64,000 nt of DNA from Candidatus Multivorans sp. (GCA_965224025.1 OZ245033.1:2272001-2336000), one strand, 5' to 3'; positions 1,889 through 62,223 are shown, counted from the first letter of the stretch. A program made the numbers and translations. Notes: generated by a model not told the origin, from the sequence alone.

Positions 1889-1958
1889 GTGCCATCCGTG
1901 CGCCCGATGACGGACGCACGGACTGGTTCGCGAATTGCGCGGACCGCGCCATTCGGGT
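1889..1958 (+). repeat. ~70-bp double-hairpin dispersed element (family A), copy 1
   Basis: GTGCCATCCGTGCGCCCGATGACGGACGCACGGACTGGTTCGCGAATTGCGCGGACCGCGCCATTCGGGT; matches copies at 11133, 41723, 60517 and 61035. Confidence 0.9.
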
Positions 1959-1968
1959 ACCGGTGCGA

Positions 1969-2045
1969 CGGGGCGTAGCTCAGCCTGGTAGAGCGCACGG
2001 TTCGGGACCGTGAGGCCGGAGGTTCAAATCCTCTCGCCCCGACCA
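1969..2045 (+). tRNA. tRNA-Pro (anticodon CGG)
   Basis: CGGGGCG acceptor stem, D-arm AGCTCAGCCTGGTAGAGC, anticodon arm CACGG-TTCGGGA-CCGTG, T-arm GGTTCAAATCC, encoded CCA end. Confidence 0.97.
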
Positions 2046-2102
2046 TTCCGCCGGCAACACGCGCCGGCAACGGGCGCCTGCTCGTCAAGTAGACTCTCGA
2101 AG

Positions 2103-3551
2103 ATGCACAGCTCGCTGAAGCTGACACGACTGGGAAGTCTCTTGCGGTTGGCGTTTGCCCTTGCTCTGGTCCTGGCGCCACTGGTCCTGCTCGCCGACGA
2201 ACCGGGGTCGGAAGAATCCCCGGAGCCGGAAGAGTCCCGGGCCGCGGCGCCTGAGGACGGGGAAGCGGGGGCGCCTGCCGACGGCGATCTTCCCGCCGAG
2301 GCCGGCGCCCCGGCCGAGGAGTCCGCGCAGGAAGTGATCGTGGCCGCGGTGGACTCCGTGATCCAGGTCGTCATCGCCGAGTTCATGGACGAAGTGACCG
2401 CGGAGGCTGACCGGGTCGGCGCCGAGGCGTTGATCGTCGAGCTCTCCACGCCGGGCGGCGAGATGCAGGCGATGCGAAAGATCTTCACGCGCTTCCTGGA
2501 GGCCTCAACACCGGTCGTTGTCTACGTCTCCCCGAGCGGCTCCCAGGCTGCGTCCGCCGGCTTCTTCATCCTGCTGGGCGCCGACATTGCCGCGATGGCC
2601 CCCGGAACGAACACCGGCGCGGCCCACCCGGTTGCCGGCGGCGGCGAGGACATCCCGGGGGCGATGGGGGAGAAGGTGACTCAGGATGCGGCTGCGACCA
2701 TCCGTTCGCTGGCGGCCCGTCGCGGTCGTGACGAGAAGCTGGCGGAGTCGGCGGTGCTCGAGAGCAAGTCGTTCACGGCGCAGGAGGCGCTCGACGCGGG
2801 TCTCGTCGATCTGGTGGCGCCCAGCCTGCAGTCGCTGCTCGTCGATCTCGACGGCCGCGTGGTCGAGAAGGGCGGGCGGGAGCGGACGCTGGCTACCCGC
2901 GCGGCGACGGTGCGCCGCGTGGAGATGTCGGCCTTCCAGCGTGTGCGGTCGATCATTGCCCACCCGAACATCGCGCTTCTGCTGATGTCGCTGGGGTCGA
3001 TAGGCTTGATCTTCGAGATCACCCATCCTGGCGCGATCTTCCCGGGCGTCGTCGGCGCCGTCTGCCTGATTCTCGGCCTGTGGGCGATGTCCGTCCTGCC
3101 GGTCAACTACGCCGGTCTGGCCCTGCTCTTCGTGGCCGTCGTGCTCTGGGTGCTCGAGGTCAAGGTTCCCAGCTTCGGCATGCTGACGCTCGGCGGTGCG
3201 ATCTCCTTCAGTCTCGGGGCGATGATGCTGTTCCGGGACGCCGACCCCGCATTGCGGGCGAGCTTGAAGTTGATCGTCGCCATCGGCATCACGATCGGGC
3301 TGCTGGCGCTCGGTCTCGCCCGGCTCGCGCTCAAGGCGCGGCGCAACCGCGTGGCGACGGGAAGAGAGGGCCTGCTCGATGAGCTGGGCCTGGTGAGCGC
3401 CGGCATCGAGGCCGGCGTGCCCGGCAAGGTGCGGTTGCACGGCGAGATCTGGAACGCGGAATCCGATGTCGCGGTCGACATCGGCGGCCGGGTCCGGGTC
3501 GTTCAAGTGGACGGCATGACTCTGCGGGTCGAACCGGTCGGCGACTCCTGA
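2103..3551 (+). CDS. nfeD: NfeD family membrane-bound serine protease (ClpP-class N-domain, TM region, OB-fold)
   Basis: STPGG, AASAG, APGTNTGAAHPV and GEIWNA motifs; adjacent to an SPFH gene; start uncertain. Confidence 0.9.
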   Translation: MHSSLKLTRLGSLLRLAFALALVLAPLVLLADEPGSEESPEPEESRAAAPEDGEAGAPADGDLPAEAGAPAEESAQEVIVAAVDSVIQVVIAEFMDEVTAEADRVGAEALIVELSTPGGEMQAMRKIFTRFLEASTPVVVYVSPSGSQAASAGFFILLGADIAAMAPGTNTGAAHPVAGGGEDIPGAMGEKVTQDAAATIRSLAARRGRDEKLAESAVLESKSFTAQEALDAGLVDLVAPSLQSLLVDLDGRVVEKGGRERTLATRAATVRRVEMSAFQRVRSIIAHPNIALLLMSLGSIGLIFEITHPGAIFPGVVGAVCLILGLWAMSVLPVNYAGLALLFVAVVLWVLEVKVPSFGMLTLGGAISFSLGAMMLFRDADPALRASLKLIVAIGITIGLLALGLARLALKARRNRVATGREGLLDELGLVSAGIEAGVPGKVRLHGEIWNAESDVAVDIGGRVRVVQVDGMTLRVEPVGDS

Positions 3552-3583
3552 GCACTTTGAAGAAGAAAGGACCCTGATTCAAT

Positions 3584-4348
3584 ATGGCGAGCCTTCCCTT
3601 TATCGGTTTCCTCCTCGTTGCAGGCCTGTTCCTGCTCACCAGGTGGATCAACATCATGGCCGAGTACGAGCGGGCCGTCGTGTTCCGCCTCGGCCGCATT
3701 CTGGAGAAGCCGAAGGGCCCCGGTCTGGTCCTGGTGCTGTGGCCGATCGACCGCATGGTCAAGGTGTCGTTGCGCACGGTCGTGCTGGACGTTCCGCCGC
3801 AGGACATCATCACTCGGGACAACGTCTCCGTGAAGGTGAACGCCGTCGTCTACTTCCGCGTACTGGAGCCGATCAAGGCGATCGTCGAGGTGGAGAACTT
3901 CCTCTTTGCAACCAGCCAGTTGGCTCAGACGACGCTGCGGTCGATCCTCGGCCAGACCGAACTCGACCAACTGCTGAGCGAGCGCGAGACACTCAACGAC
4001 CAGCTCCAGACGGTGATCGATCAACAGACCGATCCCTGGGGCATCAAGGTCTCCATGGTGGAGGTCAAGCACGTCGACCTGCCGCAGGAAATGCAGCGCG
4101 CGATGGCCAAACAGGCCGAGGCGGAGCGCGAGAAGCGTGCCAAGGTGATCCACGCCAGCGGTGAGCTGCAAGCATCCGAGGCCCTCGCCGAGGCGGCGAA
4201 CGCGATCAGCGTCAACCCGGTCACGCTGCAACTGCGCTATCTGCAGACTCTGGCCGACATCGCCACCGAGCGGAACTCGACGATTATCTTCCCGCTGCCG
4301 CTCGACCTCTTCAAGGCCTTTGCGGGATACAGACCGCCCGAAGAGTGA
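3584..4348 (+). CDS. Slipin/stomatin (SPFH, band 7) family protein
   Basis: [49 protein letters not shown]. Confidence 0.95.
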
Positions 4349-4914
4349 ACGGCGACGCCTACGAGCCCTATGAGATCGCGGTCAGCAACAGCCAGATTGC
4401 CGCCTTCGTAGCTCTTCTGGCGCTGGCCTTGGTGGGAGCGTTCGCCGCCGGAGTGTGGTGGGGCCGATCGAACGATCTCGATCTTGCCGAAACCGAAGCG
4501 GTCGTTACGCTGCCGGACTTGCCGCCTCCGGAGATGGGCGTCGGTGAGACCACCCCTGCCGCCGCTGACGCCGAAAGCGAAGCGGCGCCGGCCGGAGTGG
4601 TGCGGTTCTTCGGCGCCGCCGAGGAGGGAACGCCGCCGGTCGAGAGCAGTCGCCCGGCTTCCGCCGCGGCAACGACCACGGCCGGCCTGGTCGTCCAGGT
4701 CTTCTCGAGTGCCGACGCCAGCCAGGCGGCCTCGGTGGAGCAGAAGCTGCGCGCGGACGGACACCGCGCCTTCCTGTCACCCCAGGCGCTCGACGGCCAG
4801 GTGATGCAGCGGGTGCGGGTAGGCCCGTTCGAGGACCAGGACTCCGCTTCGGAGGCCGCCGAACTGCTGGCCAAACAGTACGGGCTCGAGACCTGGATCA
4901 CGCCGAACAACTGA
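4345..4914 (+). CDS. SPOR domain membrane-anchored protein
   Basis: N-terminal TM segment; C-terminal VVQVFS...RVRVGPF SPOR pattern. Confidence 0.8.
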
Positions 4915-4952
4915 CGGCCGGCCAGGGTACGCCGTCGGGACCGTCGGCGGCA

Positions 4953-6476
4953 TTGGCGGCGCTTGTTTCGTCCATCTGGTTCCAGGTCGGTCTGGCTGCC
5001 CTTGGCGGCGTCTGGTGGGCGTTCTGTTTCGACGAGCGCCCCGGGTTCCTGATTCCTCTGGCGGCCGCCGCGCCGCTGTGTCTGATTGCCGGGGCGCCGC
5101 TCGGGCCCTGGCGCAGGTTGTGGCTCGGCTGGCTTCACGGCGCCGTGGCGTGGCTGATCGCGGTGCCGTGGCTATCGACGATGCTGACCGTCTATGGGGG
5201 CTTGCCCGCCGTAGGGTCGGCTTGCCTCTTGGCCGTGCTTGCTCTCTACCTTGGCGCCTACCATGGCCTGTTCTGCTGGCTGGCCGGGGCGGCGCTGGCG
5301 CGTCGCGACGCTCTCTCGCTGCTTGTGGCGCCGGCGATCTGGGTCAGCCTGGAACTGGTGCGGGGCGCCGGTCCTTCGGGATTCCCGTGGAACCTGCTCG
5401 CGTACGCGTGGGTCGATGTTCCGGGCGCTCTCGACGCGACCCGCTGGATCGGCAGCCTTGGCCTCTCAGGTGTCGTCGTGGTCTCCGGCCTGGGAGTGTT
5501 GAGGCTTGCGGACCGCGGGACCCGCCGTCAGGCGATGACGGTTGTGGCCGGTGTTGCAGTGCTTCTGACGGTCGCGCGCTGGACGAATCTCGACCGGACG
5601 GCGCCGGCCGGACCGGTGCTTGATGTTCGCGTGGTGCAGCCGAACATCGGCATGATGACGGACGATCAGCTTCTTGGCGGTCTGGACTATTCGTCGATTC
5701 ACGCCAACTACCGTCGGCTCTTCGAACTGAGCCACGAGGCCTGCGCGCCAGGTGCGCTCGTCGTCTGGCCCGAGAGTGCCGTCTGGCCGTACGAACTGGA
5801 ACGCGACGCCGGACTCGCCCGCGACGTCGAAGCCCTGGTCGGTCGCGGCTGCTCGCTGCTGTTCAACAGCGCTCGCCGCTTCAACGCAGGCGAGGAGGTG
5901 GGGGCGTTCAACTCGGCCTACCTTGTGACGCCCGGTGACGCCGGGGCCGACCGCCAGACCTACGACAAGATGCACCTGGTTCCGTTCGGCGAGTACGTAC
6001 CCTTCGCGGGCTACTTGCCCGGTGTGCGCCAGTTGGCGCGGAACACGGGGAGCTTCTCGACCGGGGACGAGGTGAAACTGCTCGACATCGGAGGCGCTCG
6101 TCTGGGAATCTCGATCTGCTTCGAGATCGTCTTTCCGAGGCAGGTTGCAGCCCGTGTCCGGCGCGGGGCCTCCGTGCTCGTCACCATGGCGAACGATTCC
6201 TGGTACGGCGCCACCTGGGCGCCTCATCAACACCTGCGACCTTCCCGCTTCCGGGCCGCCGAGAACGGGCGGCCGGTGATCCGGGCCGCGATCACCGGCA
6301 TCTCGGCGCTGATCGATCGCCGCGGCGCAATCCTGGCGATCGCCGACATCGATCAGACGGCCGTGCTGCGAATGCCGGTTACGCCGCTCGGAGGGATGAC
6401 TCCGTTCTCCCGCGCGCCGCTGCTGGCGCCGCTGCTTTGCCTCGCACTGGCCGCTTTTGCCATACTGCGCCGATGA
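4953..6476 (+). CDS. lnt: Apolipoprotein N-acyltransferase
   Basis: GFPWNLL, VQPNI, WPES, YDKMHLVPFGEYVP, ICFE, NDSWYG, RAAENGR. Confidence 0.95.
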   Translation: MAALVSSIWFQVGLAALGGVWWAFCFDERPGFLIPLAAAAPLCLIAGAPLGPWRRLWLGWLHGAVAWLIAVPWLSTMLTVYGGLPAVGSACLLAVLALYLGAYHGLFCWLAGAALARRDALSLLVAPAIWVSLELVRGAGPSGFPWNLLAYAWVDVPGALDATRWIGSLGLSGVVVVSGLGVLRLADRGTRRQAMTVVAGVAVLLTVARWTNLDRTAPAGPVLDVRVVQPNIGMMTDDQLLGGLDYSSIHANYRRLFELSHEACAPGALVVWPESAVWPYELERDAGLARDVEALVGRGCSLLFNSARRFNAGEEVGAFNSAYLVTPGDAGADRQTYDKMHLVPFGEYVPFAGYLPGVRQLARNTGSFSTGDEVKLLDIGGARLGISICFEIVFPRQVAARVRRGASVLVTMANDSWYGATWAPHQHLRPSRFRAAENGRPVIRAAITGISALIDRRGAILAIADIDQTAVLRMPVTPLGGMTPFSRAPLLAPLLCLALAAFAILRR

Positions 6477-7583
6477 TGGCTTCTGACGCGAACCGCTCGC
6501 TGACCGAGCTCAGGTCCCGCCTGGACGGTCTGCGGAGGTATCTTTGACCCGGCCGAGGTCCGGGAACAGCTCGCCGCGTTCGATCATGAGATGGAGCAGC
6601 CGGGGTTCTGGGACGATCGCGGGCGGAGCGCGCCCCTGCTGCGGCGCAGGCGGACGCTGGAACGGCGGCAGACGACCGTCGACCGGCTGAACGCGGACAG
6701 CGACGAAATCGAGGCTTGGCTCGAACTGCTTGCCGAGAGTGCGGAGGCGGTCGAGGGCGAGGAGGAACTCGGCGAGTTCATCGCCCGGGTTGGGCGCGAG
6801 TCCAAGGCGCTCGACCTGGAGTTGAAGCTCTCGGGCGAGGACGACGACCGTAGCGCCCTGCTCGCCATCCACCCCGGTGAGGGCGGCACCGACTCCCAGG
6901 ACTGGGCCGAGATCCTGCTGCGCATGTACCTCCGTTGGGCCGAGCAGAGGGGCTTCGACGTCACGCTGCTCGAACGGCTCGACGGCGACGAGGCGGGTCT
7001 CAAGAGCGCGACGGTCGCCGTGCGCGGGGACTACGCGTTCGGTCGCCTGCGCGGCGAGAGCGGCGTTCACCGGCTGGTCCGGATCTCGCCCTTCGACGCG
7101 GCGAAGAGGCGCCACACTTCCTTCGCCTCGGTCTCCGCTTACCCGGAGGTCGACGACGGCATCGACATCGAGATCGAGGACAAGGACATCCGCATCGACA
7201 CCTTCCGGTCGTCCGGGGCCGGCGGCCAGCACGTGAACGTGACGGACTCGGCGGTGCGCATCACCCACCATCCCTCCGGGATCGTGGTCAGTTGCCAGAA
7301 CGAGCGCAGCCAGATCAAGAACCGGGCGATGGCGATGAAGATTCTCAAGGCACGCCTCTACGACCGGGAGGTCCAGAAGCGTCGCGAGGAGCAGGCCGAG
7401 CGCGAGGGCCAGAAGCTGGAAATCGGCTTCGGCTCCCAGATCCGGAGCTACGTGATGCACCCGTATCGCATGGTCAAGGACCACCGCACGAAACTCGAGG
7501 TCTCCGCCGTGGAGCGCGTCCTAGACGGCGAGATCGACCCGTTCATCGATGCCTGGCTCGGGCAGCAGCTCGAGACCGCCTAG
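6473..7583 (+). CDS. prfB: Peptide chain release factor 2 (programmed +1 frameshift)
   Basis: Short frame from ATG 6473/6476 to CTT-TGA at 6542-6547, continuing in the +1 frame; SPF anticodon-mimic and GGQ motifs. Confidence 0.97.
6533..6548 (+). promoter_or_regulatory. prfB autoregulatory frameshift site (internal SD GGAGG + CTT TGA C)
   Basis: Sequence CGGAGGTATCTTTGAC matches the canonical RF2 shift cassette. Confidence 0.95.
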
Positions 7584-7595
7584 GGCGGGCTGCCG

Positions 7596-9221
7596 GTGAC
7601 CCGACCGGCTGTCGACTACGTTTCGCCGCTGCCGCCGGTGCGATCGGGCATCGCCGACTACAGCGTCGACCTGCTGGAGGAACTCGCTCCTCTGTGCGAC
7701 CTGCGCCTGGTGCGCCTGCCCGGCCAGGAGGTGGCGTCCGAGATCCGGCGCCGCTACGAAGTCGTCGAACCCGCGGTGCTCGATCCGGCGCGGCGCCTTC
7801 CCTTCTACCAACTGGGCAACAACGTGTACCACGAGGGCGTACGCCGGTTCGCCCTTGAAGCGCCGGGGGTCGTGACGGTGCACGACCTGCGGCTCCACCA
7901 CCTCCTGGTCGAGGCCACGCTCGCCAGCGGCGATCTGGACGCCTACGTGGCCGCGCTCGGCGGGGAGCACGGCTGGGAGGGCTCTGCCGTGGCGATACCG
8001 ACCCGTTGGGGCGCCCACGGCCGGGCGCGGCTGTTCGAGATGCCGGCACACGGCTCGCTGCTGCTTCGCCAGCGCGGTCTGCTGGTTCACAGCGACTGGG
8101 GCCGTCGTTTCCTCGAGGACGAGCTGGGTGAGCGGGCGCCCGGTCACTCCCCGCCAGAGATTCGGCGGGTGCCGATGCCGATGCCGGTGCCCGATCCGCC
8201 GAGCCGCGAGGATGCCGCGGCGTGGCGGCGCCGGTTGGGCGTCGCGCCGTCCGCCGTCCTGCTCGGCTCCTTCGGCTTTCAGACGCCGATCAAGCGGACG
8301 GATGTGCTGCTGCGGGCGCTGGCGGAACCCGGCATGGAGGAAGTGCATGCGGTCGTTGCCGGGGAGGTGGCGCCCCAACTCGATCTGGCGACGCTGATGC
8401 GGGACCTGGGAGTCCAGGACCGGGTCATGGTGACCGGTTTCCTCGACGAAGCCTCCTTCCCGATCGCCATTGCCGGTTGCGACCTGTGCCTCAATCTGCG
8501 TTATCCGAGCGCGGGCGAGACCTCCGCTTCGCTGCTCCGCATCCTGGCGCTGGGACGGCCCGCGGTGGTCTCGGACTACGGCCAGTTCAACGAATTGCCG
8601 GGCGACGTGGTGGTCAAGGCGCCGCTCGGGGACGACCCGGCACGGGAGGCGCGGGCGCTCGCCGGTCTTCTGCGCCCGCGCCTGGCCGCGCCCGACCGGC
8701 TGCGGGAGATGGGCGATGCGGCGCGCTCCTTCATCGAGCGCGAGCACCGGCCGTCGTCGTCGGCCTGGGCAGTCGCCGAGGCCCTCGTGGAGTGGTCCGG
8801 CGAACCGGCTGAGGCACCCACCGCGCCTCCGCCGCCGCGTCCTTCGCCTCCCACGTCGTTGACCTGGGGCTGGTTGCCGGGACGGATCGAAGTCGAAGGC
8901 CGTGAACGACCCTGGGCGGACGGTGAGCGGCGCGCGGTGGAGGTCGTGGTCACGAACACCGGCTTCGCCACCTGGCTCTCGGGCCGTCACGTCGACGGGG
9001 GCGTCGTCCTCGAACCCCAGCTCTGGAGCGGCGGCCGCGACCTGTTCAAGGGCAGGCCGTGGATCCCCTTGCCGCATGATCTCGTGCCGGGTGACGCGTG
9101 CCGGATCGGTCTGAGGCTCCGCAAGCCGATTGGACCGGCTCGGCTCCGGCTCGAGCCCCACCTGTTTGGCGGCGGCTCGATGATCCACCGCGGGGCCCAG
9201 GCCTTCGACCGCGACCTGTGA
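7596..9221 (+). CDS. Glycosyltransferase family 4 protein with C-terminal Ig-like extension
   Basis: SPLPPVRSGIADYS, YQLGNN, HD, NLRYPSAGETSASLLR. Confidence 0.85.
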   Translation: MTRPAVDYVSPLPPVRSGIADYSVDLLEELAPLCDLRLVRLPGQEVASEIRRRYEVVEPAVLDPARRLPFYQLGNNVYHEGVRRFALEAPGVVTVHDLRLHHLLVEATLASGDLDAYVAALGGEHGWEGSAVAIPTRWGAHGRARLFEMPAHGSLLLRQRGLLVHSDWGRRFLEDELGERAPGHSPPEIRRVPMPMPVPDPPSREDAAAWRRRLGVAPSAVLLGSFGFQTPIKRTDVLLRALAEPGMEEVHAVVAGEVAPQLDLATLMRDLGVQDRVMVTGFLDEASFPIAIAGCDLCLNLRYPSAGETSASLLRILALGRPAVVSDYGQFNELPGDVVVKAPLGDDPAREARALAGLLRPRLAAPDRLREMGDAARSFIEREHRPSSSAWAVAEALVEWSGEPAEAPTAPPPPRPSPPTSLTWGWLPGRIEVEGRERPWADGERRAVEVVVTNTGFATWLSGRHVDGGVVLEPQLWSGGRDLFKGRPWIPLPHDLVPGDACRIGLRLRKPIGPARLRLEPHLFGGGSMIHRGAQAFDRDL

Positions 9222-11110: not shown

Positions 11111-11117
11111 CGCGGCA

Positions 11118-11210
11118 GGGCAGGATGCCCGCGTGCCATCCGTGCGCCCGATGACGGGTGCACGGAGTGGTTCGCGTGTGGCGCGGGTCGCGCCACACGG
11201 GTTCCCAGGG
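11118..11210. repeat. Family A element copy 2 (11133-11202) nested inside a family B REP-like palindrome
   Basis: GGGCAGGATGCCCGC-[GT...70 bp...GT]-TCCCAGGG; the uninterrupted form (reverse complement) is at 43600-43631. Confidence 0.85.
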
Positions 11211-11257
11211 TCAGATCGTTCTACCGCGCCTGGCCAAGCCGAGGAATCCTGGGGATA

Positions 11258-14196: not shown

Positions 14197-14233
14197 CGGC
14201 AGTTCCGCACTGTATCGAATGCCCCAGAACCAG

Positions 14234-14315
14234 CGAACCCGGGCGTCCCGCCCACCCCCGGAACCCGGGTGGCGCGATCCGCCCCTGGGAACGCGGGCGT
14301 CTCGCCCGCATCCGG
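14234..14315. repeat. Cluster of REP-like family B palindromes with a partial family A hairpin (14263-14282)
   Basis: GAACCCGGGCGTCCCGCCC; ACCCGGGTGGCGCGATCCGC (reverse complement of the family A 3' hairpin); CCTGGGAACGCGGGCGTCTCGCCCGCATCCGG. Confidence 0.75.
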
Positions 14316-14602
14316 CCGCCGCGCCCGCGGGAACATCGGCCAGACGGACTCTGTTTGCGTTCATGCGGCCGCCGCCCCGGGCCTCTACGCCGGCCGTCTT
14401 CCCGATCGTGAGAACGCGGTAACTCCGCCTCGAAGCGCCGGCCCCAAGCGCCGGAGCCTCGCCCCGCCCGGAAGCAGAGCACGCTCGGTAAGCCCTGTTA
14501 CGGAGCATCCTCCGGGTTACCGTCGGGACAAACCCGGTGCGCCATGAGGAGCAGAGGAACATACCTAACCGATGCCCCTGCCAAGGAGAAGAAGGACTAC
14601 TG

Positions 14603-41583: not shown

Positions 41584-41706
41584 GTCGTATAGCCGGAAAT
41601 CTATCAGTGCGTGCCGACACTGGTTGCGCCGGCGTCCCCGCCGGCATGGGGCCGCAGCATTGCCTGGTCGCTTGTTGTAGAGAATGTCGCTAGCGCGACA
41701 CCGTTT

Positions 41707-41807
41707 CTCTGGGTGCGCGGACGTGCCATCCGTGCGCCCGATGACGGGCGCACGGACTGGTTTACGGGTGGCGCGGATCGCGCCACCCGGGATCTGGTCC
41801 GCATCCG
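41707..41807. repeat. Family A element copy 3 (41723-41792) nested in the loop of a family B palindrome
   Basis: CTCTGGGTGCGCGGAC-[70 bp]-TCTGGTCCGCATCCG; compare the uninterrupted 28360-28392. Confidence 0.88.
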
Positions 41808-41858
41808 AGCGATGCCGCGAAGCGGCGAGCCCGAGTCGCGTCGCGCTACGATTCCCCG

Positions 41859-46877: not shown

Positions 46878-46879
46878 AA

Positions 46880-49507: not shown

Positions 49508-51223
49508 CGGTGTCGTCCTTCCGTTCCTTGATCGGTGCGATCGCGAACGTCGTGCTCCACTCGGGCCCGCGCTCCTCGAGCGTCAGGTCATAACCAACTT
49601 CACGCAGCGTTGCGCGCGCGATGTGCAAACCCATCCCGCGTCCCTCCGGCTTCCTAGTGAACCCGATGTCGAAGATGTCGTCCCGGTCCCGGGCGTGGAT
49701 CCCGGGTCCGGTGTCTGAGACGCGGAAGGTCTTCCCGGACGCGTCGAGCCGGATTCGGCGCTCGAGGCGCTCGTTTAGGCCCGAGAGCCAGTAGATCGCA
49801 TTGTCCACGAGATTTATGAACACGGGATAAAAGGAAGAGGGATAGCCCCGCACTGCGGCGCTCTTGAAGGAGTCGGATTGGGCCAGTTCTATGTTGTGCC
49901 TGGCCAGTCGCTGACCGAAGAGGTTGATCAGGAACTCGTGGATCTCCCACCCGCGAATGTCCACGGTCTTGCGGTAGAGCCTCCTTTGGAGCGGCGTGAA
50001 GAGCGTCAGATACGCGTCGAGGTGATCGAAGCTGCCGCGAATCCTTTGGTATAGCGACATCAGTTCGCGATTCGCATCGGCCCAGGCCTTAAGGCCGCGC
50101 AGTCCCGATCGGACCGAACGGATAGCGGCGCCGAACTCGTGGCTTATTATTTCGATCGCCATGCCGAGCTGAGCGAGCTGAAGGTCGGCGGCCGTCTGTT
50201 CTTGGAGCGTGACGTTGCTCTGTTCCACTGCCGCAAGTTGATCGAGAAGGGAGGAATCGCTCCTCAAGTCGATGGCTTCCAGCTGCGAGCGAACGGAGTC
50301 GAGAGTTCTCTTTGCGTTCTCCAGGGCCTCGCTGATCGGAGCTTCCAGGTCGGAACGTGCGGCAATCAGCCGCTGGTCGTCCAGACCGGCTAGGTCGCGT
50401 CGGCCGAAATCGGCCATTCCGGCGCGAATGGCATCCTCGACGTCTCGCACGCACCGGGCCGCTAGGTCGCGCACATCCTCCGAGATGCTCTTGGCTCTCG
50501 CGTTGACGTCGTGGCGACTGGCCTCCGTCTCTCTTCTAGCCAGCCGAACGACTTCATTGAGAACCGATTCCATGCGTTCTCTGGCACCAACGTCAACGCC
50601 CGCCTTCGTCACCTCCTTCGTGACGACGCTCTCAATCGAGTCCCGGATGTCCCGTATGCCGTCGGAGAGGGCCTGGAACGCTTCCTGATAGTCGCCCCAC
50701 TCCCGCTGCAAGGCCCGACTCAATCCGATGCGCGGCTTGGAAACCCGGTACATGGCCTCCAGCTTCCCGAGATCTCTCCTGGCGTTCCGTTCTATCGCGA
50801 AGATCCGTCTGGCCGCCCTGCCGCGATCTGCATCGAGGCTCGCCTCCCTGACGCGCTCCTCGGTCGCCAAGCCCAGTTCCATGACGCTGTCAAGGGGCCT
50901 GTCCGTCTCCATTCGCTGGAAGAAAGCGGTCAGGTCGTTCTTGAATTGGGCGCGTTTGGCCGTGGCCTTCGTGGCACGGGCACGCCTGTGTCGTTCGGTC
51001 TCGTCCAACTCTCGCTTGCGGGTGTTGAACCGGTCGCCGTACACTCCCTCCTCTCGGAAGAAGTCGGCGGCCACCTGAACTAGGAAGCTCTTCAGAATAC
51101 TCCTCAACTCACGATAGGCCCTGTTCTCGCGAAAGCCCTCTCGCCCGGCTTTCTCGCGAAGACGTCCGTTGTTGGCGGAGTCGACTTCGACCACTCCGAA
51201 CATCTGCCGGTACGAAAAATAGT

Positions 51224-52721
51224 GGCTCTTTTGAATTGCGAGTGGGTCAAGCGGTGTGCGGGTTGAGCGTGTGGAAGTCGAGTTTGCCGGCGATGAGGAA
51301 GAAGGCGATGCGTATGGTGTCGAATCGCTTGTAGCCTCTGGCCTTGCGTTTGGCGGACTGGAAGAGTCCGTTGAGGGCTTCGAGGAAGCCGTTGGTCTGC
51401 CGGGTTCGCGCCCAGGCAGCGATCGCTTGCAGGTGCTTTCGGATGGTGCGGGCGACGGCCTTCATGGGTTCGACCTTGGAGCGGTTCACGTTGGTGCACC
51501 ACTGATGGAGCATTCGCAGCACGACGTTGATCTGCTTGCGGTTGAGAATTTCGCGGAGTTGCTCCCGATAGAGCCAGGCGCGTGCGGTGCGTCGGCTGGC
51601 GACCCTCTTGACGAAGCGGTCGAGGTCGGCCCGTTGGGCCGGCGTCAGGGAGTCGCGGTTCTTGAGCAGCGTCCAGCGCAGGCCCTTCAGCGACGGATCG
51701 AGGCGCTGTTCGAGGCGCCGGGTCTCGTCCACCGCCTTCGAGGCCAGGGCCATGACGTGGAACTTGTCGAGGGTCACCTCGGCGTTGGGGAGATTCTCGG
51801 CGACGCCCTTGAGGAAGGCGGCCGACATGTCGATGGACGCCCGGCTGATCGCGGCGGGATCGCCGCCGCGCCTTTGCAGATCGTCGGCGAACTCCTCGAT
51901 CGTGCCGGACTTGCGTCCCTCGGCGAGGAACACCACGCGCCGGCGCTCGCTGTCGGCGACCGCGGTCACGTAGTCGTGCCCCTTGGCGCGGGAAGTCTCG
52001 TCAATGGCCACGTGGCGCAGTTCGGAGAGGTCGTCCCGGTCGACCGCCAGCTCGACGTAGCGCTTGCAGATCGCGTGCACCCGATGCCACGACACCCCGG
52101 TCAACCGGGCCACCGCAGCGAAGGTCATGTCTCGGCACATGGCCAGAATCAAGGCTTCGAACAGCAGCGTGAAGCCGGACAATCTGCCCGACCAGGGCGG
52201 AGTCACCAACGCCACCCGCTGGTCGGGGAGTCGCACACGGGGCACTCGCGCCTCGAGCAGGCACTCGTGCTGGAAGAAGTTGAGGTGCCGATAGCGCTTG
52301 ATCTGCGTGTCGTGCACCGGATGAGAACCGCCGTCCCCCTCGTGGGCGAATCGGCTGCCCTTCCTGAAGTCGATCCGTATCGTCAACCGACGCTCCCTCT
52401 CACAGAAGTCCACGCCGTCAACGAACCACGGCGCCGACACGCCCAGCGCTCTCGCGAACAATTCCCTCTGCATCTCTCGTCCTCCTTCAGTCGGAACAGG
52501 AGAGACGAGTCTTGCTCATTCCGATCGCCCGCGACTACCGCCGCCACCCGAAATCGCCGCGAACGCCCTCCCCACCGGACAGCTTGCGCCCTCGCCGCTA
52601 CCGGTCTTCCGCAGATTCCACAGCCCGACGGCGGCGGCTACGGCGGCGGAGGCCGCTATCCCAAGACCCCCTCAGCATCTGCACTCGCCCGCGCCCTACC
52701 CACTCGCAACTCGAAAGAGGC
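51224..52721 (-). mobile_element. ISL3-family insertion sequence (1498 bp) with 8-bp TSD AAAATAGT
   Basis: 24-bp imperfect IRs GGCTCTTTTGAATTGCGAGTGGGT / ACCCACTCGCAACTCGAAAGAGGC; TSD at 51216-51223 and 52722-52729. Confidence 0.95.
51247..52473 (-). CDS. ISL3 family transposase
   Basis: RHLNFFQHEC, IDETS, SIDMS, DKFHV, TNGFLEALN..KRKARGY. Confidence 0.96.
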   Translation of the reverse strand: MQRELFARALGVSAPWFVDGVDFCERERRLTIRIDFRKGSRFAHEGDGGSHPVHDTQIKRYRHLNFFQHECLLEARVPRVRLPDQRVALVTPPWSGRLSGFTLLFEALILAMCRDMTFAAVARLTGVSWHRVHAICKRYVELAVDRDDLSELRHVAIDETSRAKGHDYVTAVADSERRRVVFLAEGRKSGTIEEFADDLQRRGGDPAAISRASIDMSAAFLKGVAENLPNAEVTLDKFHVMALASKAVDETRRLEQRLDPSLKGLRWTLLKNRDSLTPAQRADLDRFVKRVASRRTARAWLYREQLREILNRKQINVVLRMLHQWCTNVNRSKVEPMKAVARTIRKHLQAIAAWARTRQTNGFLEALNGLFQSAKRKARGYKRFDTIRIAFFLIAGKLDFHTLNPHTA

Positions 52722-53980
52722 AAAATAGTAGTAGGAGGCGCTCTTGGTCCGCCGCAGCTCGATCTCCAACCAATCGTAGTCCGTGTTTCCGTACGGCTGA
52801 ATGCGTACGCCGTCCCGATAGATGTAGAGGCCCCCGATGCGTTTCGTCTTCTCCAACATGCGACCATGCTCCGCCGGAGGAAGAGTGGAATGCCTGGCTA
52901 CACCCTCGATTGCGGCAAACGTGATATCGAACGGGCCGCACGCCGTGGGATGCCCTTGTCCTTCGCTCCAGTTGATTACATGGTCGGTCTTGGTTTCGCC
53001 GTAGACGGATACGCTGCCCTTGAACTGGCCATACCGGTCGAATCTCCCCGCGATTTGGTGATCTGCGTTGTCGTAATCGTAGGGAGTGAAGAATTCGTGT
53101 TCGCCGATCAGGTCTTCGCATGTGCCGTCCACTCGGTGATCCCGAAAGGCGGTGCGGATGACGGGTTCCGCGCGGGCCACAAACGACGGAATGGTAAACC
53201 CCAGCAGCGCCTTGTGCAGCGGTGCCGCTGAACCGGAAGTCAGATCCCCCGCCAGGTCGTAGGCCAGGTTGTCAGATGTAGGCATAAGGTAGAAGTGTGT
53301 ACCGTGACCTCCGTCGAGGAGCGTAGGCTCGTCCATGTTTTCGGCTGTCTCGAGAGGATCCACCGCAAACGCTCCAAGATCGCCCTCTATCCGCGCCCAC
53401 TCCTCTGCGTCCATGTGTTTCTGAAGTCGGGCGTTCCTGCCGAGGAATGACTCCACCATGCCGGCTACGTCCTCGGCGTCGGGCAGGCTGCCTCCGGGGA
53501 AGGTGCGAAGGGGAATCCGGATGTCCTGAAGATTCAGTCCAGGACATTGGAAGACCCGCCAGTTCAGAAAGGCGGCCGTCAGGTCGGACAAGACGCCATC
53601 GCGAAGAGCCCGCGTGAGCACCAGCACTTGAGGGGCGATCGTGGCGATGGCCAGGCGACCTATTCCCTTCTCCCCCAAGATGGGCCTTGCGCCTCGCTGC
53701 GGCTTGCTGCGTCGACGCTCCGCGCGTTTCCGCTGGATGCTGGTCTCCGTCGCTATGGTGAGCCATCGGTCTATGAACTCGTCGGTCTGCATGCCGAAGC
53801 CGTCGTCGCGCAGCACGAACAGCCTGTCGCGACGGTAGTAGTCAACTTCCACGCGCCCGGCGTCCGCATCGTGCGCGTTCTTGAACAACTCGCTGATCGC
53901 GGTGGGGATGCCGGCGATCTGCTGCCTCCCCAGCATGTCCAGCGTCCTGGCCCGGGCCTTGAAGCTAACCTCCGCCGACA

Positions 53981-55090: not shown

Positions 55091-55351
55091 GGACGACGCG
55101 GCTGCCGCGACAGAGGTTCCAAGGCGGCGGAAGCCTAACAAACCGCGGCAGAAGCCGTCTTCAGGCGAAAGGCCCCTCGTGAGGTTGTGAGGTCGTTCCG
55201 GTGGGACCTCGCACCATCTGTAAGACGTTCTGCATCTTCATCGCCAGGCTGATGTCGCCGGCGATTCTCGGGCGGCCGCTCATGCCGCCTGTCCGGTTTC
55301 AGGACGGCCTCACACGATCCCCCCCAACGGTCATCGCAGGAGTGGAAACGG

Positions 55352-56608
55352 CTAACCCGCCACCACCTTCGCGTCATGCCCGCACCAAACCAATCCCGAC
55401 ACGAGCTTCGGCAGGAACCGGGTCGACTTCGGCGGCAGCAGGTCTCCGTCCTCGGTGGCGAGCACGAACTGTGTCGGTGTCATCGGGGGCAGGAAGACGC
55501 CGACGGTGGCCTCGGAGTTCTCCAGCAGGGCGACGATGTCATGCGGGTCGGCCTCGTAGGCGATGCTGCCGTCGGTGGCGGATACGATCGGCACGCCGGC
55601 GGTCGTCAGCAGGTGGTGGTGGAGCAGGGAGGCCGGCAGGTCGGCCTTGCGGCCCGGCATGTCGTCCGGGGCGGCCGCGGGGTCGAGGGTCCAGAGTTCG
55701 GGCGATGCGTCACCTTGGAACCAGACGGCGAGAGCCGGCTGCGGCGCGGCGGCGACGCGGGCCGCGATCTCGGCGCCGCCGGTTGCTTCCAGGGGTTCGC
55801 GGTGCGCCGGCAGCGCGGACATCGCGTCGCGGTTCAGCGGCACGCGGATGCCCCGGTGGACGGGGTCGATCCGGAGGTTCGCGGAGGCGAGGCTGGTGAG
55901 GACGACCATCTTGCAGGCCGCCGCGGTGCCGCTCTTTGCGCCCTCCTCGGCGGCGTAGGTCTGGGCCACCTGGGTGCGGTGGTGGCCGTCGGCGATCGCG
56001 GCGCGGGCGCCTTCGAGCGCCGCGCCGTAGGCGGCGATGCGCTCGGGGTCGGTGATCCGGAAGAGCGTGTGGACATCGCCGGTCCAGGGGTCCGCGTGGC
56101 TGACCAGGGCGGCGCCGGCGCCTCCGTTGCAGTCTTCGATCAGCAGGCGTTCGAAGGCGCCGTCGTCTTCGGCGAGGTAGAACACCGGCTCGATGTCGAT
56201 CTGCGTGAGCCGCAGCAGGGCCAGACGCTCGGCGATCGACTTCGCCACCGTTTGCTCGTGCGGCCAGAGGTCGCCTTCGCGTCCCGGCTCGACGCCGACG
56301 AGGGCGCACAGGCCGAGGCGGCTTGCACCGTCGGGTTGGGTGATCGCGTACGGGTAGAGTGAGGGAGTCTCGTCGCGCTCGACGACTCCGTTCTCCAGCC
56401 ACTCCCGGTGGAGCGCGGCCGAGTGCTCGTGCGGCGTCTCGCCGTCACGCGCCACGGGCTTCGTCACCCGGGAGAACTGGTGCGGCGACTGGGCGTGCAG
56501 GCGGTCGCGCAGGGCCTCGTCGATCTGATCGAACGGCGGCGCAGCCTGAGGTGCGGCATCGAGCCTGGCGGAGTTGTAGCGGTAGCCCTGAAAGGCGTAG
56601 AGCTTCAT
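55352..56608 (-). CDS. DUF1015 family protein
   Basis: APPFDQI, PHEQT, IADGHHR, PPKSTRFLPK..SGL. Confidence 0.88.
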   Translation of the reverse strand: MKLYAFQGYRYNSARLDAAPQAAPPFDQIDEALRDRLHAQSPHQFSRVTKPVARDGETPHEHSAALHREWLENGVVERDETPSLYPYAITQPDGASRLGLCALVGVEPGREGDLWPHEQTVAKSIAERLALLRLTQIDIEPVFYLAEDDGAFERLLIEDCNGGAGAALVSHADPWTGDVHTLFRITDPERIAAYGAALEGARAAIADGHHRTQVAQTYAAEEGAKSGTAAACKMVVLTSLASANLRIDPVHRGIRVPLNRDAMSALPAHREPLEATGGAEIAARVAAAPQPALAVWFQGDASPELWTLDPAAAPDDMPGRKADLPASLLHHHLLTTAGVPIVSATDGSIAYEADPHDIVALLENSEATVGVFLPPMTPTQFVLATEDGDLLPPKSTRFLPKLVSGLVWCGHDAKVVAG

Positions 56609-56647
56609 TGCGGTTCCTCGTCGGTGTTGGAGTCGGCCCCCCATTCT

Positions 56648-56702
56648 GGAGGATTACTGCGGGGTTACCGCGGGGTTGCAGCGGGGTTGCGGCGGGGTTG
56701 GA
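56648..56702. repeat. 11-bp phased tandem repeat (GCGGGGTTRxx x4 plus one degenerate unit) upstream of the DUF1015 gene
   Basis: GCGGGGTTACC GCGGGGTTGCA GCGGGGTTGCG GCGGGGTTGGA at 56659-56702. Confidence 0.85.
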
Positions 56703-56716
56703 GTGGAAACGGCGGT

Positions 56717-59389
<2,673 letters not shown>

Positions 59390-59416
59390 TACTCCTGTTT
59401 CTCCAAGGGGGCGTGC

Positions 59417-60424
59417 TCAGCGCTCTCCGTCGCCGGTCCCGGAGGTGTCGCCGGAGGTCTCGAAGTGGGAGGTCTCACGGAGCCGTTCGAACAACGCCTT
59501 CTCCTCCGCGGTGAGCCGCTTGGGGACGACGACCTGAACTTCGGCCAGCAGATCGCCGTCCGGGCCCTTGGGATCGGGCAGCCCGCGGCCGCGCAGGCGC
59601 ATCTTCCGGCCGGTCGACGAGCCCGGCGGAAGCTGTGCCTCCGCGTGCCCGCCGAGGGTCGGAATCCGCACCTTGCCGCCCAGCGCGGCGGTCCACGGCG
59701 CCACCGGCACGTCGCAGAGAAGGTCGCGCCCGCGGCGGCGAAAGACGGGGTGAGGCAGAGCTTCGACCTTGAGAAGCAGATCGCCGTCGGGCGCGCCCAT
59801 GCCCTTGCCGCCCTGGCCGCTGAGCCGGATCGACTGGCCGGGAAGAACGCCCTTCGGAATCTGCACCTGGAGGTTCCGCGTACGGCTGGTTGAACGGTCG
59901 AGAAACTCGATCGTCCGTGAACCGCCCTCGGCCAGGTTCTCGAGGCTGAGCGGCAACGCGACCTCGTGGTTCCGGCCGCGGCGGGGCCGGGTCCAGCTCC
60001 CGGGCCGACCGCCGCCGGGGAAGCCCCGCGGGCCGGCGCCTCCGAACAGCATGTCGAAGAAGGAACTGAAGCCGGAGGCGCCGCCGACGCCGCGGGCGCT
60101 GCCGAAGTCGAAACGCTCGTCGCCGCCGAAGTTGCCTCCGTCGCCTCCGAAGTTGAAACGGAAGCCTTCCCAGCCGGGCGGCGGAGCGCCCCCGGTCTGC
60201 ACCCGTTGCCAGGCGGCGCCGTACTGGTCGTACTTGCTCCGCTTGTCCTGGTCCTTGAGCACCTCGTAGGCCTCGCCGATGTCCTTGAAGCGGGCCTCGG
60301 CGCCGGCGTCCTTGTTCACGTCCGGGTGGAACTGGCGAGCGAGCTTGCGGTAGGCCCGCTGGATCTCCGCCGCGGGGGCGTCCTTCGCTACCCCCAGCGT
60401 CTTGTAGTAGTCCTTGTATTCCAC
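59417..60424 (-). CDS. cbpA: DnaJ-class co-chaperone CbpA (J domain, G/F region, no Zn finger)
   Basis: KDYY..LGV, HPD motif, AYEVL, GDL, AALGG. Confidence 0.9.
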   Translation of the reverse strand: MEYKDYYKTLGVAKDAPAAEIQRAYRKLARQFHPDVNKDAGAEARFKDIGEAYEVLKDQDKRSKYDQYGAAWQRVQTGGAPPPGWEGFRFNFGGDGGNFGGDERFDFGSARGVGGASGFSSFFDMLFGGAGPRGFPGGGRPGSWTRPRRGRNHEVALPLSLENLAEGGSRTIEFLDRSTSRTRNLQVQIPKGVLPGQSIRLSGQGGKGMGAPDGDLLLKVEALPHPVFRRRGRDLLCDVPVAPWTAALGGKVRIPTLGGHAEAQLPPGSSTGRKMRLRGRGLPDPKGPDGDLLAEVQVVVPKRLTAEEKALFERLRETSHFETSGDTSGTGDGER

Positions 60425-60456
60425 CGGTTCTCCCCGTCCTCAGGGACTTGCGTGGG

Positions 60457-60509
60457 TCTGAGCACCAACGACCCAAGTTGGACACATAGTTTAGTCCATC
60501 ACACTCAAC
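60457..60509 (-). promoter_or_regulatory. Two HAIR-like (HspR) operators upstream of cbpA-clpB
   Basis: Minus strand GTTGAGT-N7-ACTAAAC (60509-60489) and CTTGGGT-N7-GCTCAGA (60477-60457) versus the consensus CTTGAGT-N7-ACTCAAG. Confidence 0.6.
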
Positions 60510-60516
60510 CTTGGGA

Positions 60517-60586
60517 AGCCGGGTGGCGCGATCCGCGCCACCGGTGAACGAGTCCATGCGCCCGTCATCGGGCACATGGATGGCGC
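60517..60586 (-). repeat. Family A element copy 4
   Basis: Reverse complement GCGCCATCCATGTGCCCGATGACGGGCGCATGGACTCGTTCACCGGTGGCGCGGATCGCGCCACCCGGCT. Confidence 0.88.
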
Positions 60587-60627
60587 CCTCAGCGGGGGGT
60601 TCCGGCTGGTGGACTGCAGATTCACGA

Positions 60628-60651
60628 AGGGCGCGACTCGCGTCGCGCCCT
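60628..60651 (-). terminator. GC-rich hairpin downstream of the ferredoxin gene (possible terminator)
   Basis: AGGGCGCGAC-TCGC-GTCGCGCCCT; only a weak U-tract. Confidence 0.35.
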
Positions 60652-60679
60652 GGATTTCGCTCAAGCTGTCGCTAGCCCG

Positions 60680-60937
60680 TCACGGCGGGTCGAAGCCGAA
60701 CATCGTGTAGTTCAGCGCGATGTACTTGTCCTGACCCTCGGGCACCTCCTCGAGGGGCAGGATCGCCTGCACCGGACAGGCGTCGACGCACAGGCCGCAG
60801 TCGATGCACTCCTCCGGGTGGATGTAGAGCATGTCCCAGTCTTCCTCGTCCTTGCCGTAGATGCAGTCGACAGGGCAGACATCGACGCACGACGTGTCCT
60901 TTACGCCGATGCAGGGTTCGAAGATGATGTGGGTCAT
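60680..60937 (-). CDS. 7Fe/2x[4Fe-4S] ferredoxin
   Basis: C..KD.SCVDVCPVDC and CIDCGLCVDACP. Confidence 0.95.
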   Translation of the reverse strand: MTHIIFEPCIGVKDTSCVDVCPVDCIYGKDEEDWDMLYIHPEECIDCGLCVDACPVQAILPLEEVPEGQDKYIALNYTMFGFDPP

Positions 60938-60975
60938 CGGACTCTTCCTCGGGCCGGCCAGTGAGTGCCGGACTC

Positions 60976-62223
60976 TCAAGTTTCCGGCGGATTCGGCGTG
61001 CGCGAGACAGTACCAGAGTCGCCGTCAGGCGAGAACCCGGCTGGCGCCGCCCGCGCCAGCCGTGAACCAGTGTGTGCGCCGGTCATCGGGCGCACGGATG
61101 GACCCCGGGTGGCGGTGGTGAAGCGGCTCGGCCGCATCGCGACGGGGACCGGGACGACGGGGTTCTCGGGCCGGCCGAGGACCAGCGGCGCGACCATCCT
61201 GGCGGTGAGCGGGGCCAGCAGGATGCCGTTGCGGAAGTGTCCGGCGGCGATGTGCAGACGGTCGCTCAACCGGCCGACCAGGGGCCACCCGTCGGGCGTT
61301 CCCGGACGAAGCCCGGCCCAGTGCTCGACCGGTTCGCGGCCGCGTAGCGCCGGCAGCAGGTCGGCGGCCTCACGGGCCAGTCCGCTGCCGACATCGTCGG
61401 TCAGGCTGAGGTCGAAGCCCGTGTGCTCGACCGAAGCTCCGATCAGGAGGCGGTTGCCGGCACGGCGGACGGCATAGAAGGACGGGGTTCGGATGGCGCC
61501 GGTGAAGGGCCAGTCGATCCGGTCGAAGGCGATCATCTGGCCCTTGACGGGACGAATGGGCAGGGTCGGAAGACCGCGGATCGCCGGTGTCCAGGCGCCG
61601 CCGCAGATCACGACGGCGCCCGCGGCGCAGGCGAAACCGGCGCCCGCGACAGAGACGCCGCCGGGTTTCTCCGTCACGCTCTCGACCGTGGCCCGGTGGA
61701 GGGTGACGCCCTGCCGCCTCAGGGCTGCCGCGGCCGCGGCGGCGGCAAGCCGGTTGTCGACGCGGTGTTCGCCCGGCAGCAGCAGCGCCGCCTCGATCCC
61801 GGGACGCAGGTCCGGCGCCAACTGGAGCAGTTCGGCACGGTCGAGCTCCGCGGTGGGTTCGCCGAGATCGGTGGCCCGTGCCCGGATCCCGCCCAGCGCC
61901 TTGCGGCCTGTTTCGTCGAGGACCGGCAGGATGGCGCCCGTGTTGTCGTAGTCGATCGAGGTCCCGCTCTCGTGTTCGAGGGCCGGCGCCAGCTCGGTCC
62001 AGAGATCGCGCGACGCAAGTGCCATCTTCGCGAAGGCCACGTCGGCGCTGCTCTCCGCGATCGGCGCGATCATTCCGGCCGCGGTGGGCGAGGCGGCGCC
62101 CGCGCGGCGGTCGTCGGCGACCTCGACCCGGGCGCCGGCGCGGACCAGCTCGCGCGCGATCAGCAGGCCGATCAGGCCGCCGCCAACGACCAGGACGTCG
62201 GGCCGCGGCCCACTGGCAGGCAT
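60976..62223 (-). CDS. thiO: Glycine oxidase ThiO-like FAD-dependent oxidoreductase
   Basis: GGGLIG, AS..AAGMI, PVKGQM, WAGLRP, GHFRNGILLAP. Confidence 0.8.
   Translation of the reverse strand: MPASGPRPDVLVVGGGLIGLLIARELVRAGARVEVADDRRAGAASPTAAGMIAPIAESSADVAFAKMALASRDLWTELAPALEHESGTSIDYDNTGAILPVLDETGRKALGGIRARATDLGEPTAELDRAELLQLAPDLRPGIEAALLLPGEHRVDNRLAAAAAAAALRRQGVTLHRATVESVTEKPGGVSVAGAGFACAAGAVVICGGAWTPAIRGLPTLPIRPVKGQMIAFDRIDWPFTGAIRTPSFYAVRRAGNRLLIGASVEHTGFDLSLTDDVGSGLAREAADLLPALRGREPVEHWAGLRPGTPDGWPLVGRLSDRLHIAAGHFRNGILLAPLTARMVAPLVLGRPENPVVPVPVAMRPSRFTTATRGPSVRPMTGAHTGSRLARAAPAGFSPDGDSGTVSRTPNPPET
61035..61104 (-). repeat. Family A element copy 5, inside the 3' end of the thiO ORF
   Basis: Reverse complement GGTCCATCCGTGCGCCCGATGACCGGCGCACACACTGGTTCACGGCTGGCGCGGGCGGCGCCAGCCGGGT. 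Confidence 0.85.

Follow-up and report, generated by a model that had tools for sequence, protein, structure and literature searches.

Repetitive extragenic palindromic (REP) sequences and the RAYT transposases that accompany them, together known as REPtrons (Nunvar et al. 2010, PMC2817692; Di Nocera et al. 2013, PMC3733652), are among the described systems closest to the repeat analyzed here, a two-hairpin element found in a stretch of 64,000 nt from Candidatus Multivorans sp. (GCA_965224025.1 OZ245033.1:2272001-2336000), hereafter called the window. Like the REPs and BIMEs portrayed in these papers, the element consists of short, GC-rich, imperfect palindromes present in more than 100 copies, mostly intergenic. 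A conserved short tag beside each hairpin, mosaic and nested arrangements, and some in-frame intragenic copies are further shared features, as is a single-copy Y1 transposase gene located amid inverted repeat arrays, which in our case is found in related genomes (PMC2817692, PMC3733652). In contrast to REPtrons, however, the element obligately joins two different hairpins head to tail, the direct arrays around the RAYT are made of another repeat, which we call REP-A and in which the element is only nested, and the genome that harbors the window has no RAYT. Head-to-tail REP dimers were reported to be rare in the survey of Di Nocera et al. 2013 (PMC3733652), and the tag is GGTTC/GAACC here as opposed to the GTAG or CGTC of REPs (PMC3733652).

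Similarities extend to three other groups of elements. In REPINs (Bertels and Rainey 2011, PMC3116915; PMC3337134), a REP doublet is likewise the replicating unit, is non-autonomous, and persists for a long time in a lineage; REPINs are thought to use a vertically inherited, single-copy RAYT. Their doublets, however, join the same REP in inverted order into one long hairpin, whereas the element combines unlike hairpins in direct order. Insertion sequences (ISs) of the IS200/IS605 type integrate on the 3' side of a tetra- or pentanucleotide specific to the element and leave by precise excision (PMC5027513). With these the element shares asymmetric ends with their own subterminal hairpins and the absence of terminal inverted repeats, and probably also a short specific sequence beside the insertion, the absence of a target duplication, and precise excision, although the last could be mimicked by slippage. 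Gene-less IS200/IS605 derivatives have been termed PATEs (PMC7290912), and as one of these a 68-nt element would be reduced to just two end hairpins and a 9-nt linker; unlike such derivatives, it gave no full-length parent IS with its ends, its genome has no TnpA or TnpB hit, and its target resembles its own 3' end. Finally, the palindromic elements of Rickettsia (PMC3733652) also form in-frame inserts in housekeeping and DNA repair or replication genes, adding 20-30 residues, but they occur in another phylum and have an unrelated sequence, and the in-gene copies of our element are a 69-nt subset, since its commonest, 68-nt form would shift the frame. The two-hairpin element is not a new kind of element; its behavior would match that of REPs and REPINs and that of IS200/IS605 derivatives without genes. 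The best explanation for our data is a genus-specific, non-autonomous mobile DNA of the REP kind. More specifically, the sequence data make it probable that the element is a REP-type head-to-tail hairpin doublet that was moved as single-stranded DNA (ssDNA) by a RAYT and is now orphaned in this genome.

Five full copies and one partial copy were found by direct reading where the original prediction, made from the window alone, had placed them. Copy 1 (1889..1961, plus strand; coordinates of full copies include the 5' pentamer) consists of the pentamer GTGCC and a 68-nt unit and lies 8 nt upstream of a tRNA gene (1969..2042, plus strand; Rfam RF00005, 66.7 bits), which is context outside the element. 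Copy 2 (11133..11205, plus strand) is nested in a REP-A hairpin, as part of a composite insertion of ~121 nt that follows a stop codon (11112-11232). Copy 3 (41723..41795, plus strand) is a consensus-like unit within another palindromic repeat (CTGGGTGCGCGGAC ... TGGTCCGCATCCG). Copies 4 (60514..60586, minus strand) and 5 (61032..61104, minus strand) stand on opposite sides of the same small ferredoxin-like open reading frame (ORF), copy 4 downstream of it, and the foot of hairpin 1 is degraded in copy 5. The four compensatory changes named in the original prediction, AA/TT in hairpin 2 of copy 1, GTG/CAC in hairpin 2 of copy 2, CCA/TGG in hairpin 1 of copy 4, and GCT/AGC in hairpin 2 of copy 5, can all be read in the sequence. 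The partial copy (14260..14282, minus strand; read directly) is a hairpin-2 half, with nothing but the tag GGAAC, the 5' arm, and the loop, and is truncated against a REP-A unit (14283..14317, plus strand; CCCTGGGAAC + GCGGGCG-TCT-CGCCCGC + ATCCGGCC). Allowing up to three mismatches, the 26-nt string of hairpin 1 has five matches in the window, against 0.00 expected from 100 shuffles.

All five full copies adopt the predicted two-hairpin structure when folded as ssDNA, with minimum free energies of -25.1 to -37.3 kcal/mol and z scores of -4.0 to -9.3, values that none of 200 shuffles equaled. The two hairpins differ from each other, are GC rich, measure 25-26 nt each, stand in direct (head-to-tail) order, and fold separately. 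We examined covariation in an alignment of 45 copies, comprising the five from the window, 39 chosen to be maximally different, and one near-consensus copy. Both sides had changed in 15 of the 22 stem pairs, compared to a shuffle mean of 6.7 (0 of 500 shuffles reached 15), and 64 cells showed two-sided changes, compared to 13.7 in shuffles. Standard pairs occupied 90.1% of the 989 stem cells, a proportion that dropped to 26-49% when the partners were slid against each other. The proposal that constraint acts at the level of structure is supported by stems carrying many two-sided compensatory changes. Some of the stem variants are inherited subfamily markers and not independent changes; the GTGTGG/CCACAC form of hairpin 2, for example, is common to 13 copies. 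The ATGA loop, described as invariant, is so among the five window copies but not elsewhere, where CTGA, ACGA, AGGA, GTGA, AAGA, and ATGG loops occur.

The pairs that deviate from the Watson-Crick rules bear on the question of which strand is folded. On the strand used in the original prediction, A:C pairs outnumber G:T pairs 52 to 24 (p = 0.002), a count limited to stems with at most two non-Watson-Crick pairs and drawn from copies that are not independent. If wobble pairs are tolerated, this excess would make the complement (GGAAC + hairpin 2', TGAAC-CAGT + hairpin 1') the folded strand, which we offer as a lead only. Among orthologous sequences of copy 1, 88% of stem cells are paired and one in situ switch from C-G to U-A via U-G was seen. 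The covariation score of this set lies above all shuffles, yet the number of pairs changed on both sides is 4, against 4.2 in shuffles, and in situ covariation at the copy-1 site is therefore only modest.

The unit, a body of 63-64 nt plus one pentamer, is 68 nt long in 85 copies and 69 nt long in 47; 2 nt separate the left boundary from hairpin 1, and ~2-7 nt separate hairpin 2 from the right boundary. Terminal inverted repeats are absent, the two ends being different hairpins. A GGTTC tag lies 3' of each hairpin, which on the other strand is a GAACC 5' of each hairpin, and neither GTAG nor CGTC was found at the hairpin feet. Over the 148 full-length copies of the genome, the 5' flank reads G (117), T (134), G or T (104 or 42), C (128), C (146), and the 3' end reads G (143), T (139), T (135), C (126), after which comes a base that varies (C in 79, G in 32, T in 28, and A in 9 copies). 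The commonest pentamers are GTGCC (62), GTTCC (29), and CTGCC (16) on the left and GTTCC (62), GTTCT (22), and GTTCG (22) on the right. Unit and flank have one short pentamer of the form GTKCC/GTTCN in common. Left and right pentamers differ systematically and are identical in just 9 of the 148 copies, which argues against a target duplication. As the 3' end of the unit repeats its own target, stacking in tandem is to be expected, and it does occur.

Related genomes provided the empty sites by which the original prediction proposed to recognize mobility. In 28 relatives that have both flanks of copy 1, the site is filled in 18 and empty in 10, filled and empty sites differing by 68 nt, and the empty ones retain a single GTGCC, GTACC, or GTTC. 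The 19 orthologous copy-1 sequences share locus-specific features, such as a C·A mismatch in 16 of the 17 distinct sequences, which points to one old insertion as the likely origin of all of them. Since empty sites occur in close as well as distant relatives, several independent losses of exactly 68 nt must then have followed. At the copy-4 site, three relatives have one, two, and three head-to-tail copies with a period of exactly 68 nt and no REP-A between the units; of the 18 relatives in which both flanks are present, one keeps a 20-nt remnant, and the site is empty in at least seven. Copy 5 is intact in this genome only: none of the 13 relatives with both flanks has an intact copy, and five of them hold a remnant of 32-41 nt with the loop region of hairpin 1. 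The ~121-nt composite holding copy 2 is absent from all 12 relatives with both flanks. A copy in gyrA is shared by 3 of 28 relatives, the others lacking either exactly the 69-nt unit or a larger piece, and the 69-nt difference between filled and empty genes falls between GGTTC repeats. The element thus enters and leaves sites as an exact unit, with differences of exactly 68 or 69 nt. The 3' part of gyrA (C1:1119028-1119946) is itself variable across the genus, in that the stretch around the insert measures 50, 71, or 74 nt where the element is lacking, and in one sister genome 18 nt of the element's hairpin-2 arm are present as an additional, partial duplication.

That the copies would be numerous had been extrapolated from the window, and the count agrees. 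The host genome (5.14 Mb, 67.6% GC, three contigs, completeness of 100%) gave 166 hits to an nhmmer profile built from close copies, one of which was an antisense duplicate, leaving 165 loci; contig C2 holds 1 of these and the chromosome the other 164. Full-length copies make up 148 of the 165, with 144 distinct sequences among them, and a covariance-model search of the genome returned at least 150 matches to the family. Copies are denser in the window (1 per 13 kb) than in the genome on average (1 per 31 kb). In a plain-motif search of the genome, remnants with a single hairpin were scarce (~8 with only hairpin 1 and ~3 with only hairpin 2); the doublet is the unit. By covariance model, the family is present in 39 of 41 other genomes of the same genus and in none of 15 genomes from 12 other genera of the same family, and it was also missing from all 16 genomes from other families of the same order. 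Exact-pattern matches, among the matches listed, were to Candidatus Multivorans, Thermoanaerobaculia, and Acidobacteria metagenome-assembled genomes. A blastn search with copy 3 against a plasmid collection gave no match. Positions 2-3815 of contig C2 (76.7 kb) are 94% identical to window positions 57189-61019, including the copy-4 region, which would reflect either duplication of the segment onto a plasmid-like contig or a variant of the assembly. In a literature search confined to the papers themselves, Candidatus Multivorans was not mentioned, and only general REP papers came up, none of which describes the two-hairpin family.

REP-A is a repeat of ~33 nt (GGGAAC + GCGGGCA-TCC-TGCCCGC + ATCCGG, with a 7-bp hairpin), and 129 tagged copies occur in this genome. 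Two-hairpin copies nest exactly at its GTTCC tag, in the form GCGTKCC|unit|CAGG, and a REP-A hairpin lies directly upstream of at least 39 of the 148 full copies. In up to 94 of the 148, the flanks are unique right to the pentamer, a figure obtained with a regular expression that undercounts nested copies. REP-A is the classical REPtron partner of one RAYT clade, because it forms inverted arrays around that clade. A repeat of ~85 nt with palindromic ends (GCGCGGCAGAAC ... GTTCTGCCGCGC), often located directly after a stop codon, carries REP-A together with a CCGGCGC/GCGCCGG hairpin (for example, window 11112-11232 and C1:4285991-4286075), and with a nested two-hairpin unit it makes up recurrent composites of ~165 nt. 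The third palindromic repeat (CACTGGGTGCGCGGACC..GGTCCGC; window 41700-41815), which hosts copy 3, is of a type that flanks other RAYT clades in sister genomes (loci L055 and L058), which suggests that several REP-RAYT pairs coexist in the genus.

The genome encodes no recognizable enzyme of its own for the element. The absence of a cognate enzyme from the window, as originally stated, holds for the whole genome: despite its completeness of 100%, a search for Y1_Tnp (PF01797) gave 0 hits, and a search for TnpB (PF07282) gave no hit either, by which an IS605-type partner carrying TnpB is rejected. Nor was a full-length parent IS with the ends of the element found. PF01797 hits, one to three each, are present in 25 of the 41 genus relatives, and the corresponding Y1 genes are RAYT-like and do not have hairpins 1 and 2 as their left and right borders. 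In the relatives, 29 RAYT loci holding 30 genes were scanned with the covariance model of the element and with one RAYT protein. Inverted REP-A arrays flank a single clade, which occurs in three sister genomes, with mutual identities of 99-100% and 76% and identities of 48-54% to all other RAYTs; it scores 79.8 bits on NCBIfam REP_Tyr_transpos (cutoff, 80) and 33.7 bits on Pfam Y1_Tnp. One of its members (locus L115:1914-2558, minus strand) is 214 amino acids long. A strong two-hairpin copy lies within ~300 nt of the gene at all three of its loci, compared to 1 of the 26 other RAYT loci. The copies in question are nested in REP-A and occur on both sides of the gene at one locus and on one side at two. 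As for the proposed check whether the hairpins flank a RAYT, copies do lie near RAYT genes in sister genomes, but the direct flanks are inverted arrays of REP-A, not of the two-hairpin element. The sister genome with copies on both sides contains 13 identical 80-nt copies, all of them composites of REP-A and the unit, versus 3 in the genome under study. In the latter, the corresponding locus (C1:632020-633290) has inverted and rearranged flanks and keeps only a hybrid repeat remnant of ~30 nt; the gene is absent (best tblastn hit, E = 0.44). As judged from sequence, this is consistent with a loss of the RAYT locus by recombination between inverted repeat arrays.

Where the copies sit relative to genes was determined from GC3-based ORF calls that cover 83% of the genome. 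The 134 intergenic copies are distributed over tandem (67), convergent (39), and divergent (28) gaps, convergent gaps being in mild excess (39/134 compared to 20% of all gaps). Relative to co-directional neighboring genes, 30 copies have the same orientation and 37 the opposite one. Because of this mixed orientation and the presence of copies in convergent, tandem, and divergent gaps alike, the element acts at the DNA level and is not an RNA gene. In the Rfam scan of the window, only the tRNA reached its gathering score, and nothing matched the element, also at E <= 1; the best subthreshold hit, over copy 3, had 20.5 bits, with a cutoff of 58. With respect to GC-skew replichores, 74 copies are co-oriented with replication and 90 opposed (p = 0.24), a weak test since the replichores are very unequal. 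The extremes of the cumulative GC skew lie at 4.99 and 3.47 Mb, and such unequal replichores suggest large chromosome rearrangements.

Although 31 copies fall inside ORF calls, this number is inflated by overlong ORFs, and we regard 10 cases as confirmed. These 10 of the 148 full copies sit in open frames with a coding signal in the same frame on both sides, and every one of them is of the 69-nt form; when copies were tested irrespective of frame, none of 68 nt turned up within a frame-shifted gene. The hosts are a prolyl oligopeptidase, an Amidase_3 protein, UvrD/PcrA, GyrA, an FG-GAP/ASPIC protein, an alpha/beta hydrolase, a PD-(D/E)XK nuclease, a hydantoinase/oxoprolinase, YchF, and one protein without a Pfam domain (9 of the 10 host ORFs have one), and all of these ORFs stay open across the copy. 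Eight of the ten copies are antisense to the host gene, in two frames. Length selection operates inside genes, where only in-frame, 69-nt versions are found.

Taken together, these observations lead us to the following model. The unit would be cut out and pasted as folded ssDNA by a RAYT-type Y1 HUH transposase, in the peel-and-paste manner of IS200/IS605, its left end being inserted 3' of a short specific target, without target duplication and with precise excision. Having its own target at the 3' end would allow units to pile up in tandem. The foremost candidate for this enzyme is the RAYT clade that three sister genomes retain amid inverted REP-A arrays with nested copies. The genome studied here would have lost this gene via rearrangement at the locus, and because of this loss its ~165 copies are probably orphans, altered nowadays solely through mutations, deletions, and recombination. 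The originally proposed non-autonomous element moved by an HUH/Y1 enzyme (RAYT or IS200/IS605 type) is to this extent supported, as far as sequence analysis reaches.

Several observations are difficult to accommodate in this model. The candidate enzyme is linked to the element by adjacency, and two-hairpin copies near the RAYT may be explained by a preference for the REP-A tag. The tag of the element is neither GTAG nor CGTC. The excess of A:C over G:T is found on the strand whose target lies 5' of the unit, which does not fit a simple IS608-like picture of the top strand. Different sites also favor different cut positions inside the pentamer: a cut after GTKC fits copy 4, with the left pentamer as the target, as well as the conservation steps, the gyrA site favors the base after the right GTTC as the target, and the GTTCC of native REP-A tails compared to the GTGCC on the left of nested copies fits a cut after GT or, alternatively, a founder mutation. 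Precise loss could result from replication slippage between 5-nt repeats across a hairpin. Moreover, the composite with copy 2 is missing from the 12 relatives compared, although the genome that has it lacks a RAYT, and copy number does not track Y1 genes across the genus, as this genome with its 165 copies and at least three relatives without a PF01797 hit have at least 82 copies each. Finally, no orientation bias relative to the GC-skew replichores was seen, though IS200/IS605 elements usually show one.

Other explanations were weighed against the orphaned, RAYT-mobilized doublet. A related one, which we regard as possible but tentative, is that the unit is a minimal peel-and-paste transposon that parasitizes the RAYT of REP-A by inserting at the REP-A cleavage tag, including that in the arrays flanking the RAYT. 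It is unlikely, in our view, that the unit is only a passenger in REP-A and larger composites or is spread by recombination, gene conversion, or slippage, solo copies being decayed composites. Such a passenger would explain why the RAYT-bearing sister genome has its 13 identical copies all in composites with REP-A, why REP-A so often lies directly upstream (in at least 39/148 copies), and why composites of ~165 nt recur, and recombination between lineages could produce the patchy presence and absence across the genus. It would not explain the up to 94 of 148 copies with unique flanks up to the pentamer (by a regular expression that misses some nested copies), the solo copies beside the tRNA gene, beside the ferredoxin-like ORF, and in gyrA with their exact 68- or 69-nt differences, or the clean 68-nt period of tandem arrays without intervening REP-A. 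Very unlikely, too, is retention of the repeat for a function in the host, as a structured RNA or DNA signal such as a terminator, mRNA stabilizer, or protein-binding site, with mobility being secondary. The stable hairpins with their compensatory changes, the A:C asymmetry indicating that one strand matters, the mild excess in convergent gaps, and the persistence of copy 1 at one site across the genus, paired in 88% of its stem cells and with its C-G to U-A switch, would all agree with it. Against such a function, copies are oriented randomly to genes, occur in divergent gaps and in frame within genes, and lack a T-run after the hairpins; the same sites are empty in close relatives without replacement, two-sided changes in orthologous copy-1 pairs do not exceed those in shuffles (4 versus 4.2), and the best Rfam score remains far from its cutoff (20.5 bits versus 58). 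The random orientation, the in-frame intragenic copies, and the missing Rfam match equally speak against the small structured RNA that the original prediction had kept as an option.

Two further alternatives invoke other enzymes. The pentamers that bracket each unit are similar (GTKCC ... GTTCN), empty sites keep one of them, and the genome is rich in ISs (ISL3 and IS110), all of which might be expected of a classical miniature inverted-repeat transposable element mobilized by a DDE transposase that makes a 5-bp target duplication. Such an element, though, should not have two different hairpins for ends in place of terminal inverted repeats, nor pentamers whose third base is G (104 copies) or T (42 copies) on the left but T (135 copies) on the right, with identity in only 9 of 148; a DDE element would not usually have a fixed pentamer as its target, and no IS with such ends was seen, so that we consider this origin extremely unlikely. 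Another recombinase, for example of the IS110 (bridge-RNA) type, or a tyrosine recombinase acting on folded single strands, could cross over in a shared pentamer core, and the pentamers of empty sites do match now the left and now the right pentamer, as such a crossover would give; the genome also has 32 IS110-family hits. However, only 2 of the 32 lie within 1 kb of an element, the median distance being several kilobases, IS110 enzymes move their own element and none here is bounded by the hairpins, and no candidate recombinase was linked to copies at any locus inspected. This route appears highly improbable, and the IS110-type alternative mentioned in the original prediction falls with it, the transposase matches not adjoining the copies.

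The IS110-family transposase hits fall into two main groups, and IS110 was rejected as a mobilizer or host of the element on the distances given above. An ISL3 element in the window (51213-52729; 408-amino-acid transposase, DDE_Tnp_ISL3, 212.9 bits) is an ordinary DDE IS unrelated to the repeat and was likewise discarded. It has five further, 100% identical copies elsewhere in the genome and has therefore been active recently.

The copying of REP-type repeats by RAYTs has so far been inferred mostly from repeat distribution. With its exact unit, short target, stacks of one, two, and three copies, nesting in REP-A, and genomes with and without the enzyme, the two-hairpin element offers clean material for the study of RAYT mobility. 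If the unit does parasitize the RAYT of REP-A, its exact boundaries would be the first sequence-level readout of the sites at which a RAYT cuts and joins in vivo. For uncultured Acidobacteriota, the element is also an annotation hazard, through 23-residue inserts in gyrA, uvrD, ychF, and other genes and through long spurious ORFs. In addition, inverted copies mark the rearrangement that removed the RAYT locus, and the presence or absence of copies at individual sites could serve as a strain marker.

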